This document shows positions 24,910-51,450 of a stretch of DNA of 64,000 nucleotides, one piece after another (position 1 is the stretch's first letter; each line of letters begins with the position of its first letter). This DNA is from Octopus vulgaris (taxonomy: Eukaryota). The stretch spans positions 31,868,001-31,932,000 of the forward strand of contig OX597835.1 of NCBI GenBank assembly GCA_951406725.2, in the 5' to 3' direction. The translations under genes were made by a program, and so were the position numbers. The notes beneath the pieces were generated by a model that was not told the DNA's origin, did not search any database, and saw only the letters and a list, made by a program, of their open reading frames with translations.

Positions 24910-25380
24910 TGCGAACTGGCAGAATCGTTAGTACGCCGGGCGAAATGCGTAGCCGTATTTCGTCAGCCGTCACGTTCTGAGTTCAAATTCCACCGAGGTC
25001 TACTTTGCTTTTCATCCTTTCGGGGTCGATAAATTAAGTACCAGTTACGCACTGGGGTCGGTGTAATCGACTTAATCCGTTTGTCTGTCCTTGTTTGTTC
25101 TCACTGTGTTTAGCCCCCTTCTGGGTAGTAAAGAAATAGATATCTATATAAATGCGTCGAGCTGGCAGAAACGTTAGCACACCGGGTGAAATGCGTAGCC
25201 GTATTTCGTCTGCCGCTACGCTCTGAGTTCAAATTCCGCCGAGGTCGACTTTGCTTTTCATCCTTTCGGGGTCGATAAATTAAGTACCAGTAACGCACTG
25301 GGGTCGATGTAATCGACTTAATCCGTTTGTCTGTCCTTGTATGTCCCCTCGATGTTTAGCCCCTTGTGGGCAATAAAGAA
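24910..25380 (+). mobile_element. Tandem pair of full-length SINE S2 copies
   Basis: gcg.actggcagaa.cgttag.ac.ccggg.gaaatgcgtagccgtatttcgtc... at ~24910 and ~25155, each ending in taaagaaa. Confidence 0.88.
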
Positions 25381-25843
25381 ACAGATACAACATACCAAGT
25401 CATTCTTCAGGATCTTATACGATAAGAGCTATGGTGGTCCGGTAAGTATCGTAGCTGGGTGTATGACCTGGCAGTTGCAAACAAGCTGCAAAAGTAAAAG
25501 TACCGCATTATTGACCTCAGAGAAAGACTTCCTCGCGTATGAAATCGCGTAGCGTGTTTGGTAGAGGCTAGAAACTAACTAAACTGAAAACATAATAAAC
25601 AACCTGCCCGCCTGGCCAGCAGGGTGGCCTCATCTTAAAAAAGCCAAAACAATTCGAGCAAATGATCCTCAGTATACTGCAGGTTAATTAATTAGATCCT
25701 TCGTGGGTGGCGGAGCGCAATCCGTGCTATGAATCTCAGGTACCAATTGGCCGACAAGGAATAAGATTACAACCCTTGCCATACGTACCTACAACTACAA
25801 CATTCTTGCTGGAAGTGTGTGTGTGTGGGTGTGTGTATACACA

Positions 25844-33929: not shown

Positions 33930-33931
<2 letters not shown>

Positions 33932-34130
33932 CCAATAATAATAAAGGGGAAAATTAATGAATTAATTTCTACTTAATAATTTTACCAAGTAGTTTGGTAT
34001 GTTAAAAGAACCATTATCGGTAACCTAATACAAAAATTCTATAATTATTAGCATAATTATAACTAGGGTTCAGCAAAAATTGCTTCACCACCTACCGAAA
34101 TTTAGAAATAGCAGTTAAATACTATTCCAC
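33930..34130 (-). repeat. Fragment related to the 44431-45067 HHR-bearing element
   Basis: Shares ctgctatttctaa..cggta / cttggt.aaatt..aattaatttt.ccct blocks with 44440-44590; another rearranged piece at 35500-35634. Confidence 0.5.
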
Positions 34131-35460: not shown

Positions 35461-35499
<39 letters not shown>

Positions 35500-35633
35500 T
35501 CCGTAATAATGAAGGGTGAAATTAATTAATTTGGAATAATTATCAATTACACCAAATAGCTATAACTCTTTGACTGCTATTTCTAAATTCGGTATGTGGT
35601 AAGGCAATTCGTTGCCAAACCCTTTATTGCTTA

Positions 35634-35665
<32 letters not shown>

Positions 35666-41810: not shown

Positions 41811-43314
41811 CTAGCAGAATTGCCCGGCGTTGCTCGGGGCTGAATTGCTTGAAAGTACTGTTAATGATTGCACTGAATTATGATGATTATTCAGGCAAAT
41901 ATTGAAATAAGCTTACGGTGGGAGATAAGGACTTAACGCCAAACGTGTGCCATTGCATTGTTTTGGGGGAACCAAATTTCTGATGAGCATTATAGGGGCA
42001 CTAACTTTAAGTTTGAGAAAGTGTGGTGGTAGTCCGGGGTGCTCAAAGGAATTGAGTACCTCTATTGGATAGTTGATGACGTCCTCTGGGTCAGGAGTTG
42101 TATCGATAGACTGATATACATCGACTTCCCCAGGAATGAGTTTTAGCATTTCATCATTAATATGGTGAACAGTTTTATTCCTCGGGGCCAGTATAGCCTT
42201 TTTTGCCAATCCAATCCATATTCTGATAATTAGCTTGTAAATCTGGGAACACTGCATCTCTGAGATGAGAAAGCGTCTTAACAATGGTACAAATGGAATC
42301 GATGGCAATATTACCATTTTCATCCCCTGGTATTTTGCCTTCGCCATGTGCAAGGAGAGTGTGAGGAAATGCTGGTGATGTGATATTACGTCGCATATGA
42401 GCACGCATATTGGTGTGAAGTTTGAGAGTTACTTCCGTTTATTTTAAAAAATATGCATTAAAATGGAAAAAAATGATGGTAAATTATTTGTAAAATCATA
42501 GACTCATCGTAGACGCGCGCTAATACCCAGAAGGACTCGATATGAATCACGACTATAAGATACCCGGTTTTGGTTAAACTGCATCGCAAAATGTGGGAGT
42601 AGTTAGGAATCTAAATCGGAGTAGACAGACACACAACCTTTCTTTTATATATAAATACATACATACACACACACATACATACACACACACACACACACAC
42701 ATACATGCATACATACATATACACATAAACCGAGTAAAAAATTTCAGTTATCTCTCTCTTTCACACATTACTCTCTCTGTCTCTTCACACACACTAACAG
42801 AAGCACTTCACTTACACAACATACTGTCTGTCTCCCACACTTCATCAAACACACACACACACACACACATGTACATCAATGAGTCCCATGCACGGTAAAT
42901 TGAAAGGAACTTCCCTCGTCATACAATCGCTTTCTCTTAGTCTCTTTCGCTCTCATTACTTATGTAAAAAAATAAAAGTTGTTTCTATGTGTGTAAAGAG
43001 GAAGTGGGAAGCAGAGTGAAAGAATCACTCACTACAGTAAGTCAATTACTTTCATTTTATTCCTTGCCCACTGTGTGTGTGCGTTTGCGTGTGGTGTAAA
43101 CCAGACTAAGAAAAGCATTTGACACACACCAGAATGTGAGTTTTCTGTAAATTTTGCTTAATTGGAGTTTAAATTTTAAAAACTGGACCTGGCATGACGC
43201 GATGCATTGTACTCTTAAAACTGCTAGGTAAATTGTAATTGAAGAAATCCTATATTGTAGATTTGTATAACTCCCAAAGGGAGGCAGATAAAATCTGCCT
43301 TTTATAATAAGAGA
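41811..43314 (-). mobile_element. Non-autonomous Helitron with intact termini
   Basis: Minus strand starts A|TCTCTTATTATAAAAG (43314) and ends cccgagcaacgccgggcaattctgCTAG|T (41811): AT target, TC...CTAG ends, GC-rich 3' subterminal hairpin. Confidence 0.88.
41925..42420 (-). pseudogene. Helitron RepHel PIF1-type helicase fragment (frameshifted)
   Basis: LRDAVFPDL..NYQNMDW / KAILAPRNKTVHHINDEML..IPGE...Y.SID.......NYPIEVLNS....GLPPH.LKLKV.APIMLIRNL.PPK.CNGTRL. Confidence 0.9.
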
Positions 43315-44062: not shown

Positions 44063-44432
44063 AGGAGTGGCTGTGTGGTAAGTAGCTTGTTTACCAACCA
44101 CATGGTTCCGGGTTCAGTCCCACTGCGTGGCACCTTGGGCAGGTGTCTTCTGCTATAGCCTCGGGCCGACCAAAGCCTTGTGAGTGGATTTGGTAGACGG
44201 AAACTGAAAGAAGCCTGTCGTTTATATGTATATATATGTATATATGCGTGTGTGTATTTGTGTGTATTTGTGTGTCTGTGTTTGTCCCCCTAGCATTGCT
44301 TGACAACCGATGCTGGTGTGTTTATGTCCCCGTTACTTAGCGGTTCGGCAAAAGAGACCGATAGAATAAGTACTGGGCTTACAAAAGAATAAGTCCCGGG
44401 GTCGAGTAGCTCGATTAAAGGCGGTGCTCCAG
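44063..44432 (+). mobile_element. SINE S1, 3' tail cut by the next element
   Basis: Full head and body; stops at ggcggtgctccag where the direct-repeat element begins. Confidence 0.88.
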
Positions 44433-45062
44433 TTTTTTAGCTGCTATTTCTAATGAGTTCAGTATGCGGCAAAGTAATTTATTTTACTAAGCCCTTTTAT
44501 ATAATGTAATAATTTGAATTCGCCTTAAATGGTCCCTTTGCATACTGAACACTTGGTGAAATTGATTAATAATTAATTAATTTTACCCTCAATTGTTGAA
44601 ATTATAATTAATCTCCATCTAATTAATGCTTCGGATTTTACCGAAATAAGCATAGTGTTTGCTGATTTTAACCCACGCTGGTGGAAAGGGGAGAACAGAA
44701 ATTCTTCGCTTGCATATTTGAGTTTGTTGGCACTGTTAGTTACGAGCAGATCTTCGAAAGCGATGAGAAGCCGAAAGGGTATGCTCTCACTTTCAGTGTT
44801 TTCAAATCCAAACCAAGGAGTTTCTGAGCTGATGATAGAAGTGTCGTGTTGACTAATCTTGAAACGTACGTTCTCAAATAACCTTTGCATTTGATTTTTT
44901 GATGTCTTTACCCCCAAACTTTCGTGAGTTGAGTTGAGCAAACACTATATGAGAGAGGTTTTCTTTAAGTATTAGAAATAGCTTTAAAAAAGTTTTTAGC
45001 TGCTATTTCTAATGAGTTCAGTATGCGGCAAAGTAATTTATTTTACTAAGCCCTTTTATATA

Positions 45063-45067
<5 letters not shown>
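44431..45067 (+). mobile_element. Retrozyme-like / non-autonomous PLE-type unit: ~560 bp monomer with ~77 bp terminal direct repeats and an internal HHR
   Basis: agttttt(t)agctgctatttctaatgagttcagtatgcggc...cccttttatataatgta at 44431-44508 and 44991-45067; HHR at 44825-44876; ends in (TA)n. Confidence 0.7.
44825..44876 (+). ncRNA. Minimal type I hammerhead ribozyme
   Basis: tgag-CTGATGA(44829-44835)-t aga..gtcg tgt tgac..tct t-GAAA(44861-44864)-cgtacg-TT-ctca: palindromic stem III, GUU site; U.U at the base of stem II. Confidence 0.7.
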
Positions 45068-45119
<52 letters not shown>

Positions 45120-45213
45120 GGAGTAAACACATAAATGTGAAACAAGGTGGAAAAAAGAGTACTCAAATACCAGTGGTAGAGTAATATGCTTTATTTTAAG
45201 CAGCAGAAAATTC

Positions 45214-45267
45214 AACAAAATCTGTTACTCTGAGTTTCTCGTTGCCGTTCATCAGACAGTTTTTGCT
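45214..45267 (-). ncRNA. Minimal type I hammerhead ribozyme (left inverted arm)
   Basis: Reverse complement of 48213-48266. Confidence 0.72.
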
Positions 45268-46072
45268 AGAATGGAACTGATATATCAATTCAATCTATAC
45301 TCTTACAAACGCTACACCTTTAAAAAGAAATGGACTTGTTTGATTGGCCCTTTAGAAAAAACGGTCAATCTTCGAGCGATAAACAAAAAGGTCAAAAATA
45401 TATGTATATATGTATAAAAAAATTATAAAAATTATAAAATCCGAGGAAAAAACCTATTGACGTTAATGAAGACATTGCAAATTAATGCATAGAAATTAAA
45501 CCTGTTATAAATACTGCAATACATATTTATATTAAAATCTACATATATATATCAACATACACAAAAGGATGCGCGTAAACGCCATACATACATATACAGA
45601 CGTATGAATATAAATCTAAATATACACATAAAAGCATGTGTACATATATTCACGCAAACCGTCTCGCACGCAAGCTAAAATTCATCTATGTAGCAATTCT
45701 CATATACTGGGCAAGGAGGGGGAACGAAAGAAAGGGAGAGAGAGAGAGAGAAAAAGGAACGAAGTAGGGGTGGGGAAAAAAACGAAATATGAAAAAAATT
45801 ATGTATACAAGTAGTGAACGATGTTATTGGCATCTATAGAGACCAGTATACATACACAAGTTTGAATGGATACATATACATACCGTCGTGTATATGTGTG
45901 CTTAAGCACAAACATACTTTCACTTACACATACACAGATACGCATGCTTACAAATACATATGCTTTGCTATACACATACTTATATAAACATTCTAATTTT
46001 GACAACATTGCTTTTTTTAAGGGAATTAATAAAAATATATACGAAAGACATATAAAATAAAATATATACAGC

Positions 46073-47137
46073 CATGAATCAGATAGACTTAGGAAGGACC
46101 TTATAGCTTTCTTTCAAAGGATGGGCTTACGGGTTACGATAGATGCTAACCTGAATAGTGTAGATTTTTTAGACGTAAATTTTAATGTAAGATCGGATAG
46201 ATTTAAACCTTTCCGTAAGCCCAATGAAAAGCTATCGTATATTAGCAAAGATTCGAACCATCCACCAGTTATCCTTAGGAACTTAGTCAGCAATGTAGGT
46301 AGAAGAATATCTTCAATTTCTTCGGACGAGGCAGCATTCCATAATGCTGCACCGTATTACGATAGCGCATTAAAGAATAGTGGATTATCTGAGAAGATCC
46401 AGTTCAACCAGCTTAATGCTGATAATAATGCTGCACGAAGAACTAGGACCAGGAAAGTTTTGTGGTTCAACCCGGCTTTCAATTTGGCCGTAAAGACTAA
46501 TATAGGTAAGGAATTTTTGAGATTAGTCTCTAAGCATTTTAAGCAGGGTCATAAATTCTACAGAATATTTAATAGAAGAACCCTGAAGGTTAGCTATTCT
46601 TGTTGCAGAAATTTCGCCTCTTACATTAGCCAACATAATAGGAAGCTAATTGAGATTAGACATGGTGCCGAGCCCATTAAGAAATGTAATTTCAAAAACG
46701 AAAGCTCCTGTCCGTTAGAAGGGAAATGTCTAGTGAAAGGAGTAGTTTATAGAGCCAAGGTGCAAGTGGAAGGCTCATCGGAATACAAGACATACACAGG
46801 GGCTTCAGAAAATTCATTTAAAACAAGATTTTATTCTCATAAAAATTCATTTAAATACCCAGAGAATAGGAAGAAAAACAGCCTAGCAAAATATGTCTGG
46901 GAACTAAAAGCAAAGGAAGCCCCACCTTTCAACGTGACATGGAGCATTCTGGACAGGGCGGCACCATACAGGCATGGAGCTTACAAAAATAATTTCAAGT
47001 GCAGGCTTTGTCTATTAGAGAAAATGTACATCTTATTCAAAGACAATAATTCTTTGAATCAAAGAAGTGAGTTAATGAACTTATGTAGACACGCGGCTAA
47101 ATTTAAAATGTCGAATATAAATATACCATATGGATAG
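46073..47137 (+). CDS. PLE polyprotein C-terminal half: end of RT, thumb, Cys linker, GIY-YIG endonuclease (open frame, 5'-truncated)
   Basis: Frame extends upstream of ATG 46121 (HESDRLRKDLIAFFQRMGLRVTIDANLNSVDFLDVNF); YISKDSNHPP, RKVLWFNPAF, CN(F)KNESSCPLEGKC, GVVYRAKV, YTGASENSFKTRFYSH, CRLCLLEK, LNQRSELMNLCRH. Confidence 0.9.
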   Translation, partial: HESDRLRKDLIAFFQRMGLRVTIDANLNSVDFLDVNFNVRSDRFKPFRKPNEKLSYISKDSNHPPVILRNLVSNVGRRISSISSDEAAFHNAAPYYDSALKNSGLSEKIQFNQLNADNNAARRTRTRKVLWFNPAFNLAVKTNIGKEFLRLVSKHFKQGHKFYRIFNRRTLKVSYSCCRNFASYISQHNRKLIEIRHGAEPIKKCNFKNESSCPLEGKCLVKGVVYRAKVQVEGSSEYKTYTGASENSFKTRFYSHKNSFKYPENRKKNSLAKYVWELKAKEAPPFNVTWSILDRAAPYRHGAYKNNFKCRLCLLEKMYILFKDNNSLNQRSELMNLCRHAAKFKMSNINIPYG

Positions 47138-48212
47138 AGTATATATTTTGTATTTTTGATTTTTGATTTTGATTTTGACTCTTGAGCGCTACGATGTATT
47201 TTGATTTTGATTTTGTTTTTGATTTTGTTTTTGTTTCCAAGCTATGCGGATCTTAATCCGTATAGCAAAGTCTTATGTTTCTACATATATATTAGGAAAA
47301 ACCTACAAACTTTGTTTTCATGTTATTGTATTGCATAGGATTACCTTGATTATTTATATTACCTTGATTACTTATAAATGACCCAAAATAGGATGTTATA
47401 TTTTATTTTATATGTCTTTCGTATATATTTTTATTAATGCACCCATTTTTAAAAGCAATGTTTTTTAAAAAAAGCAATGTTGTCAAAATTAGAATGTTTA
47501 TATAAGTATGTGTATAGCAAAGCATATGTATTTGTAAGCATGCGTATCTGTGTATGTGTAAGTGAAAGTATGTTTGTGCTTAAGCACACATATACACGAC
47601 GGTATGTATATGTATCCATTCAAACTTGTGTATGTATACTGGTCTCTATAGATGCCAATAACATCGTTACACTACTTGTATACATAATTTTTTTCTTATT
47701 TCGTTTTTTTCCCCACCCCTCCTTCGTTCCTTTTTCTCTCTCTCCCTTTCTTTCGTTCCCCCTCCTTGCCCAGTATATGAGAATTGCTACATAGATGAAT
47801 TTTAGCTTGCGTGCGAGACGGTTTGCGTGAATATATGTACACATGCTTTTATGTGTATATTTAGATTTATATTCATACGTCTGTATATGTATGTATGGCG
47901 TTTACGCGCATCCTTTTGTGTATGTTGATATATATATGTAGATTTTAATATAAATATGTATTGCAGTATTTATAACAGGTTTAATTTCTATGCATTAATT
48001 TGCACTGTCTTCATTAACGCCAATAGGTTTTTTCCTCGGATTTTATAATTTTTATAAGTTTTTTATATATATATACATATATTTTTGACCTTTTTGTTTA
48101 TCGCTCGAAGATTGACCGTTTTTTCTAAAGGGCCAATCAAACAAGTCCATTTCTTTTTAAAGGTGTAGCGTTTGTAAGAGTATAGATTGAATTGATATAT
48201 CAGTTCCATTCT

Positions 48213-48266
48213 AGCAAAAACTGTCTGATGAACGGCAACGAGAAACTCAGAGTAACAGATTTTGTT
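48213..48266 (+). ncRNA. Minimal type I hammerhead ribozyme in the PLE 3' UTR
   Basis: agcaaaaactgt-CTGATGA(48225-48231)-a cg GCAA cg a-GAAA-ctc a gag-TA-acagattttgtt: ~11 bp stem I, GNRA-capped stem II with an A.A base, GUA site (cleavage after 48254). Confidence 0.75.
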
Positions 48267-48359
48267 GATTTTTCTGCTGCTTAAAATAAAGCATATTACT
48301 CTACCACTGGTATTTGAGTACTCTTTTTCCACCTTGTTTCACATTTATGTGTTTACTCC

Positions 48360-48459
<100 letters not shown>

Positions 48460-50869: not shown

Positions 50870-51450
50870 AAGGCGGTAAGCTGGCAGAAACGTTAGCACG
50901 CCGGGCGAAATGCGTAGCGGTATTTCATCTGCCTTTGCGTTCTGGGTTCAAATTCCGCTGTGGTCGACTTTGCCTTTCATCCTTTCGGGGTCGATAAATT
51001 AAGTACCAGTTACACACTCGGGGCGATATAATCGACTTAATCCGTTTGTCTGTCCTTGTTTATCCTCTCTGTGTGTAGCCCCTTGTGGGTAGTAAAGAAA
51101 TATGTTATTTTGTCTGCAGCTACGTTCTGAGTTCAAATTCCGGCGAGGACGACTTTGCTTTTCATCCTTTCGGGGTCGATTAAATAGTTACCAGTTACGC
51201 ACTGGGGTCGATATAATCCACTTAATCCGTTTGTCTGTCCTTGTTTGTCCTCTCTGTGTTTGGCCCCTTGTGGGTAGTAAAGAAATAGGTATTTCGTCTG
51301 CCGTTACGTTCTTAGTTTTCCGCCGAGGTCGACTTTCTTTTTCATCCTTTCAGGGTCGATTAAATAAGTACCGGTCGCGCACTGGGGTCGATCTAATCGA
51401 CTGACCCCTTCCTCAAACGTTTCGGTCCTTGTACCTAGAAGAGAAAAGAA
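50870..51450 (+). mobile_element. Tandem trimer of SINE S2 (one full head, two head-less units)
   Basis: Meta-like domain repeated three times; units 2 and 3 restart at (t)attt.gtctg right after gtaaagaaata. Confidence 0.85.

Follow-up and report, generated by a model that had tools for sequence, protein, structure and literature searches.

A young non-coding 560-nt retrozyme family in Octopus vulgaris with two fixed 3' ends, probably inserted by Penelope-like elements

The 64,000-nt stretch of Octopus vulgaris DNA analysed here (hereafter the window) contains an element at 44431-45067 that is probably a truncated copy of a young, non-coding, non-LTR retrozyme with a 560-nt unit, pasted into a (TA)n microsatellite by the reverse transcriptase (RT) and GIY-YIG endonuclease of a Penelope-like element (PLE) acting in trans. 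Earlier work has already suggested that PLEs mobilise retrozymes and that copying is by rolling circle, in the accessible parts of PMC7229834, PMC4209133 and bioRxiv 2026.07.22.740005 mostly from co-occurrence and ribozyme likeness. As a substrate the 560-nt family is short, young and clearly delimited; its start sites are mapped, the domain between these sites is conserved, and three PLE families that have open frames are candidate helpers. The ends of its copies record two fixed starts and an accumulation of stops where the ribozyme is predicted to cut, which likely shows PLE-type copying of such RNAs into the genome. Further, in vitro tests with the family could ask directly if each strand is assigned one site of a single RNA, and if ribozyme cutting and a circle matter.

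The window copy and its immediate surroundings include the following features, where S1 and S2 are the two 3' end sites described below.

44064-44432, forward strand: abundant SINE-like repeat, without its tail at the 5' joint of the insertion
44431-45067, forward strand: one-armed insertion of the 560-nt family (locus L001), 1.14 units, 5'-truncated, 3' end at S1
44434-44992, forward strand: unit, 559 bp here versus 560 in the family
44825-44876, forward strand: type I hammerhead with minimal palindromic stem III ACGUACGU and a GUU triplet, predicted cut after 44872
44971-44982 and 45002-45013, forward strand: 12-bp hairpin over the unit junction
44993-45067, forward strand: start of a second unit, exact 75 bp, terminating at S1
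45067-45117, no strand assigned: (TA)n target microsatellite, right flank of the window copy

Positions 44434-44508 recur at 44993-45067 with 100% identity over 75 nt and a spacing of 559, and adding the common AG and one T indel extends this direct repeat to 77/78 bp; the second copy in the window is without one T, hence the family period of 560. SINE copies elsewhere read on into CATGGCCGCAG past 44432, the joint with the window insertion sharing AG only, and the loss of the SINE tail was presumably a target-site deletion. The 5' end of the window copy does not adjoin (TA)n, as in 6 of 33 one-armed insertions. The unit has 34% GC, a circular fold with z = -6.7 (25 shuffles) and stop-to-stop frames of 91 and 123 aa, for which Pfam gave no match at cut-off. 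The original prediction, made from the letters of the window, had described a monomer of about 560 bp with terminal redundancy, a single hammerhead, a hairpin over the repeat junction, a SINE cut at its tail on the left, a right end in (TA)n and no recognisable coding capacity, and the present analysis bears out each of these. With its one ribozyme the window copy belongs to the solo class, and since it holds one hammerhead only it cannot itself release unit-length RNA. It is likely a dead end, and its ribozyme is expected to be nearly inactive by analogy with the lone minimal PLE-type ribozymes treated in the accessible part of PMC4209133.

Copies elsewhere were sought in the 2.8 Gb genome, with positions (q) counted in a natural 560-nt unit taken from locus L079, so that q1 corresponds to window position 44433 and the cut to q440. 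The unit as query returned 1563 candidates, the 40 scored of which gave 147 matches at 87-100% identity, mostly 99%. With these matches the unit is not a chance arrangement, and a one-off local duplication is ruled out. One 26-mer of the unit had 439 exact matches genome-wide (reversed control 0), the first 100 of which represent 56 insertions, and by extrapolation about 250 insertions would carry it. We examined 88 insertions, namely the 38 top-scoring and 50 more taken in genome order by the 26-mer, the first set being biased towards full units and the second towards arms reaching q448; L002, cut by a contig end, was left out. These separate insertions are dispersed and their copies very similar, so by sequence the family is young. 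Head-to-tail arrays reach about 12 units, 75 of the 143 arms exceed 560 nt and 112 run past the cut site, and an LTR layout was seen in none of the 88 insertions. Additionally, pieces of the unit are covered by contigs of three runs guessed to be RNA and of one untyped run; these contigs show neither strand, ends nor circles, and for joined sequence in them tandem DNA gives the same joint as a circle.

In the 88 insertions the 3' ends occupy two fixed sites, S1 (q60-90) and S2 (q160-180), separated by about 98 nt, and the 5' and inner ends are scattered. Among 55 two-armed, head-to-head insertions, 47 combine S1 with S2, none pairs S1 with S1 or S2 with S2, and 8 have one odd end, which for L076 is a scoring artefact, as this locus ends at S2 on closer look. 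The 33 one-armed insertions divide into 18 ending at S2, 14 at S1 and 1 elsewhere, L011 and L157 being complex. Next to (TA)n lie 135 of the 143 3' ends and, in the one-armed insertions, 27 of the 33 5' ends. Since the 3' ends are fixed and the others scattered, the 75-bp redundancy of the window copy marks a chance truncation point. Most of what had been foreseen about other copies was found: they are periodic, the arms longer than one unit (75/143) fit copying beyond the unit length, two fixed 3' ends used one each at (TA)n targets fit the suggested partial-tandem machinery of PLEs, and sampled copies are never joined to a coding element, as expected of a retrozyme-type unit. Neither of the two outcomes named as damaging, copies without periodicity and a unit that is the UTR of a coding element, appeared in the sampled copies. 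Circularly permuted start points, also suggested, were not seen; variation is confined to the 5' ends, the 3' ends being tied to S1 and S2.

Two other copying schemes fit these ends poorly. L1-type twin priming on one linear RNA, in which the second primer would be the stopping point of the first arm, was rejected as a rule on the scatter of the inner joints, L078 alone fitting exactly, and our literature search returned no relevant paper on twin priming in Penelope. End-to-end template jumping on linear monomers is disfavoured by the absence of indels at the cut site in the units of 39 aligned loci. As a separate observation, L154, L160 and L175 are perfect fold-back insertions that turn at a palindrome near q308-316, with ends still at S1 and S2.

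With two 3' ends, a one-sided tail and an inverted 5'-truncated arm, the S1/S2 pattern is the signature of the PLE 'tail'. In the accessible parts of PMC11167929 and PMC8557442, the tail system likewise has two start sites 3' of the ribozyme, a tail at one end and an inverted 5'-truncated arm, and PLEs use AT-rich targets, Hydra-clade families lying at (TA)n (PMC8557442) as the 560-nt family does. The available portion of PMC11167929 reports that both strands are cut and extended in vitro by a PLE protein for which a dimer is predicted, that two internal RNA start sites bound the tail, that ribozyme mutants insert normally in vitro and that the main in vitro substrate is unprocessed RNA. Relative to these PLEs, the 560-nt family is without an RT/endonuclease frame and its tail measures about 98 nt instead of 30-40. 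It also pairs S1 and S2 strictly one each, whereas the in vitro data in that portion of PMC11167929 showed no strand difference, and it has genomic stops at the ribozyme cut, where no RNA reads ended in the same work.

The hammerhead call rests on the core pattern and on compensation across families, since the Rfam search of the 64-kb window at the gathering cut-off gave no matches. Stem I has 4 bp (TGAG 44825-44828 with CTCA 44873-44876), the core comprises CTGATGA at 44829-44835 and GAAAC-GTAC-GTT, and stem II is closed by U-U. The core is intact in 175 of 181 family units and constant over sister families, in which stem I varies in compensating pairs (UCUGAG/CUCAAA, UCUACG/CGUAGA, CCUACG/CGUAGG and ACUAUA/UAUAGU), H17 can be U, A or C, and the palindrome of loop III is retained in most. 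The hammerhead of the 560-nt family is non-canonical and paired away in the predicted circular fold, and its activity is predicted to be weak; that of sister family B is canonical (GUC, G-C and a 6-bp stem I). The minimal PLE hammerheads acting as dimers in the accessible part of PMC4209133, which also proposes a circle and more-than-unit copying, share with the 560-nt family a short stem I, a palindromic stem or loop III and predicted dimer activity, but the 560-nt family has a GUU triplet and U-U in place of G10.1-C11.1. Four loci of sister families (L267, L286, L290 and L293) have a longer loop III (ACGUAACGU, ACGUUAACGU, ACGUGAGCGU) and are possibly active as monomers. At L061, an inner joint near 1551-1567 skips the entire hammerhead (q390-439) at a short GTT match.

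The region of S1 and S2 forms a conserved folded domain, listed here with the relatives of the family in the window.

33930-34126, reverse strand: 3' fragment from sister family A, which is older and has copies that are about 92% alike; it ends at its S2 beside (TA)n
35496-35634, no strand assigned: very short insertion from sister family B (594-nt unit) with two arms, the inverted one ending at S2 and the forward one at S1
44457-44606, forward strand: conserved folded domain, a three-way junction plus an AU-rich hairpin, with S1 in an open loop at about 44503-44509 and S2 just after, at about 44602-44606

The fragments proposed near 33930 and 35500 are both real relatives of the window unit (67% identity for 33937-34126 and 75% for 35505-35555), but they belong to sister families. 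Family B is tandem with two ends as in the 560-nt family, and family A has a long and a short end. A motif common to these families has 8134 matches (control 0), with unit lengths of 545-594 in the loci fetched, and these families conserve the domain. The S1-S2 region folds with z = -4.8, and the domain helices are 95% paired in 11 family representatives, a value reached by 0 of 500 shuffles. Double-sided changes occur in 3 of 24 domain pairs, and 126 of 500 shuffles reach as many; with few double changes and representatives related in sequence, the support for the pairing is modest. As modelled, the domain is a putative binding and initiation site for a PLE protein.

A candidate helper lies directly beside the window copy.

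45118-48361, forward strand: 5'-truncated Hydra-clade PLE with a frame at 46061-47137 (end of the RT plus GIY-YIG) and hammerheads at 48221 (forward) and 45259 (reverse)

This PLE occupies the same (TA)n as the retrozyme insertion, and it was rejected as part of the same insertion because the 3' ends of the two elements point towards one another from either side of this microsatellite. Its family, Hydra family 1, is young, with a 727-aa frame, many open copies and 27,305 candidates, and its linker CNFKNESSC is without the second C of the CxCX5C motif of the clade. At 59 loci its ends lie 42 and about 107-112 nt past its own ribozyme cut; two-armed loci use one end each in 7 of 9 cases, and the window copy uses S2 on both arms. 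Hydra family 2 (L206, L218, L219 and L233) has about 900 aa with long Asn-rich inserts, a hammerhead with a long stem II, open frames and two ends about 155 nt apart, which lie at (TA)n. The third family (L341 and L346), which we take to be Neptune-like from its linker motif, has a 781-aa frame, the variant ribozyme core UUGAUAA, internal repeats in its 3' part and ends at (TA)n.

The unit matched none of these three families in sequence, and in local alignments of the domain with the two Hydra junctions 148 and 160 of 200 shuffles scored as high. The unit itself has no RT or GIY-YIG frame, and at 70 loci drawn by the motif no frame contiguous with the domain was found. PLE fragments lay nearby in five of these; L267, L279, L282 and L291 were rejected as PLE-joined copies, since (TA)n or unrelated DNA in between makes them separate insertions, and the fifth is L272, the joint having been viewed in the other four only.

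The stops at the predicted cut and the variants carried by the arms bear on the form of the template. Of the 143 arms, 13 have 5' ends in q438-448, compared with 59 in q180-437 (p = 7e-6) and 33 in q449-560 (p = 1e-4); the interval was chosen after the data had been seen, yet it is anchored on the predicted cut at q440. In L176 and L179 both arms extend to about the cut point. A length below one unit, as a cut linear monomer would give, is seen in eight of the 13; the other five carry one or two further units, which fits a linear multimer cut in part and, equally well, pausing at the joint made by ligation. Local sequence can also create end peaks, since four or five of the 13 ends lie at q446, where ATA matches the (TA)n flank or the partner arm, and another 11-nt interval, q299-309, holds 11 ends from fold-backs at the palindrome near q308-316. 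The stops suggest that cut linear RNA is also copied, or that a pause at the ligation joint is involved.

Distances are 0.29% within an arm, 0.44% between the arms of one insertion and 1.64% between insertions. Of the family polymorphisms covered by both arms, 101 of 112 are common to both, the 11 exceptions including 10 C>T or G>A changes; rare variants occur in both arms in 24 cases and not in 88, with no footprint of RNA editing (rare A>G 49 versus T>C 51). Together with the strict one-each use of S1 and S2, the shared haplotype suggests a single RNA as template for priming from both DNA ends. Where both arms exceed one unit, the template has to be circular or else a multimer left uncut. 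In L072, L075 and L076, private variants are present through all covering units of both arms, and such recurrent fixation of rare variants through whole arrays favours a one-unit circle. L187 has mixed variants. In L072 and L076, the longest arrays, period-2 and period-4 variant blocks occupy part of one arm, indicating that long arrays expanded further in place.

In the mechanism that we propose, multi-unit loci would be transcribed and the hammerhead, probably as a dimer via its palindromic stem III, would cut after GUU, some of the unit RNA being ligated to a circle. A PLE protein, probably a dimer, would then sit on the folded S1-S2 domain and both strands of the (TA)n would be nicked, so that one DNA end could prime at S2 and the other at S1 of the same RNA. 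Each RT would travel a variable distance, often more than one round, the arms joining head to head or one being lost, and long arrays would grow later via local duplication; the window copy would have retained the S1 arm only, as 1.14 units. We consider a PLE-driven retrozyme very likely, against which count the lack of a sequence-sharing PLE among the three families and the use of S2 twice by the neighbouring PLE. Given such a retrozyme, a circle is moderately likely as a main template, with counter-evidence from the cut-site stops that point to linear templates, the mixed L187 and the local array expansion in L072 and L076. More tentatively, a PLE dimer might clamp the conserved 150-nt domain of one 560-nt circle, around which two RTs from opposite DNA ends, at S2 and S1, would chase each other; the domain, conserved in thousands of superfamily copies that have no ORF and no helper related in sequence among the three PLE families, would then act as an independent loading signal that PLEs read by its shape, and the GUU-joint stops would record germline ribozyme cutting in the genome.

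An unlikely alternative keeps the element and its PLE helper but has the RNA copied from a linear multimer transcript that is for the most part uncut and comes from a homogeneous source array; the ribozyme would trim only the 5' end, and a circle would not be needed. It would account for the 13 arms that stop at the cut, five of them after one or two full units, and for the mixed variants in L187. It also agrees with the dominance of unprocessed RNA in vitro (accessible part of PMC11167929), with the predicted weakness of the ribozyme and with the 8 of 9 Xenopus retrozyme dimers that failed to cleave according to the available text of bioRxiv 2026.07.22.740005. Rare variants fixed in all units of both arms in L072, L075 and L076 instead imply a one-unit bottleneck followed by amplification; moreover, a lineage copied from linear multimers would shorten with every round of 5' truncation, and a second arm starting at the upstream S2 of a multimer was seen in 0 of 55 insertions.

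Unequal exchange, a route discussed in the accessible part of the same preprint, would build the arrays later and minisatellite-like from an insertion of about one unit. The period-2 and period-4 blocks of L072 and L076 are of the expected kind, but inverted insertions that are very young often have more than one unit in each arm (75 of 143 arms overall exceed 560 nt), an arm without an initial repeat cannot expand, and the within-arm distance is 0.29%, leaving this origin highly improbable. Least credible of all is the unit as the terminal repeat (pLTR) of an unsampled coding PLE, which would explain why a ribozyme followed by two start sites is laid out as in PLE pLTRs and could draw on the fact that the loci examined are part of the 8134 motif matches. 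In arrays S2 leads directly to the next unit with no frame, 5 of 70 motif-drawn loci lie near PLE fragments, and 4 of the 4 viewed are separated from them by (TA)n or unrelated DNA.

Returning to the PLE-driven retrozyme, the sequence-level definition places the 560-nt family among the animal non-LTR retrozymes as a new family, for which cleavage and circle are predicted. By the same kind of evidence, it works like a PLE insertion, yet it is not an autonomous PLE and has no parent pLTR among the three PLE families. Animal non-LTR retrozymes, as presented in the accessible parts of PMC7229834 and bioRxiv 10.64898/2026.07.22.740005, are likewise non-coding tandem units of low GC (< 50%) with a type I hammerhead in each, occur as dimers to multimers and solo copies, and have a PLE as proposed helper. 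The length of 560 nt falls within their range of 51-972 bp given in the available text of the preprint, and it exceeds the lengths of about 220-400 nt given for units from coral, mussel and axolotl in the parts of the literature covered. Circles have been shown for retrozymes elsewhere in the portions available of PMC7229834 and the 2026 preprint, whereas a circle of the 560-nt family is proposed; the same portions are silent on the ends of insertions, on a pair of fixed start sites and on insertions with two arms. The sample in the accessible part of the preprint includes no mollusc, and its units are close to known pLTRs, in contrast to the 560-nt family with no matching pLTR. Our literature search brought up no article about retrozymes of cephalopods or about paired starts in such elements, and the supplements of the 2026 preprint and the PLE ribozyme list of PMC8557442 may bear on novelty.

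Elsewhere in the window, a fragment of a Pif1 helicase 2B domain (41913-42428, reverse strand, E 4.5e-12) is likely a Helitron relic, and another SINE-like repeat is arranged in tandem at 24912-25387 and 50919-51402, with periods of 246 and 185.
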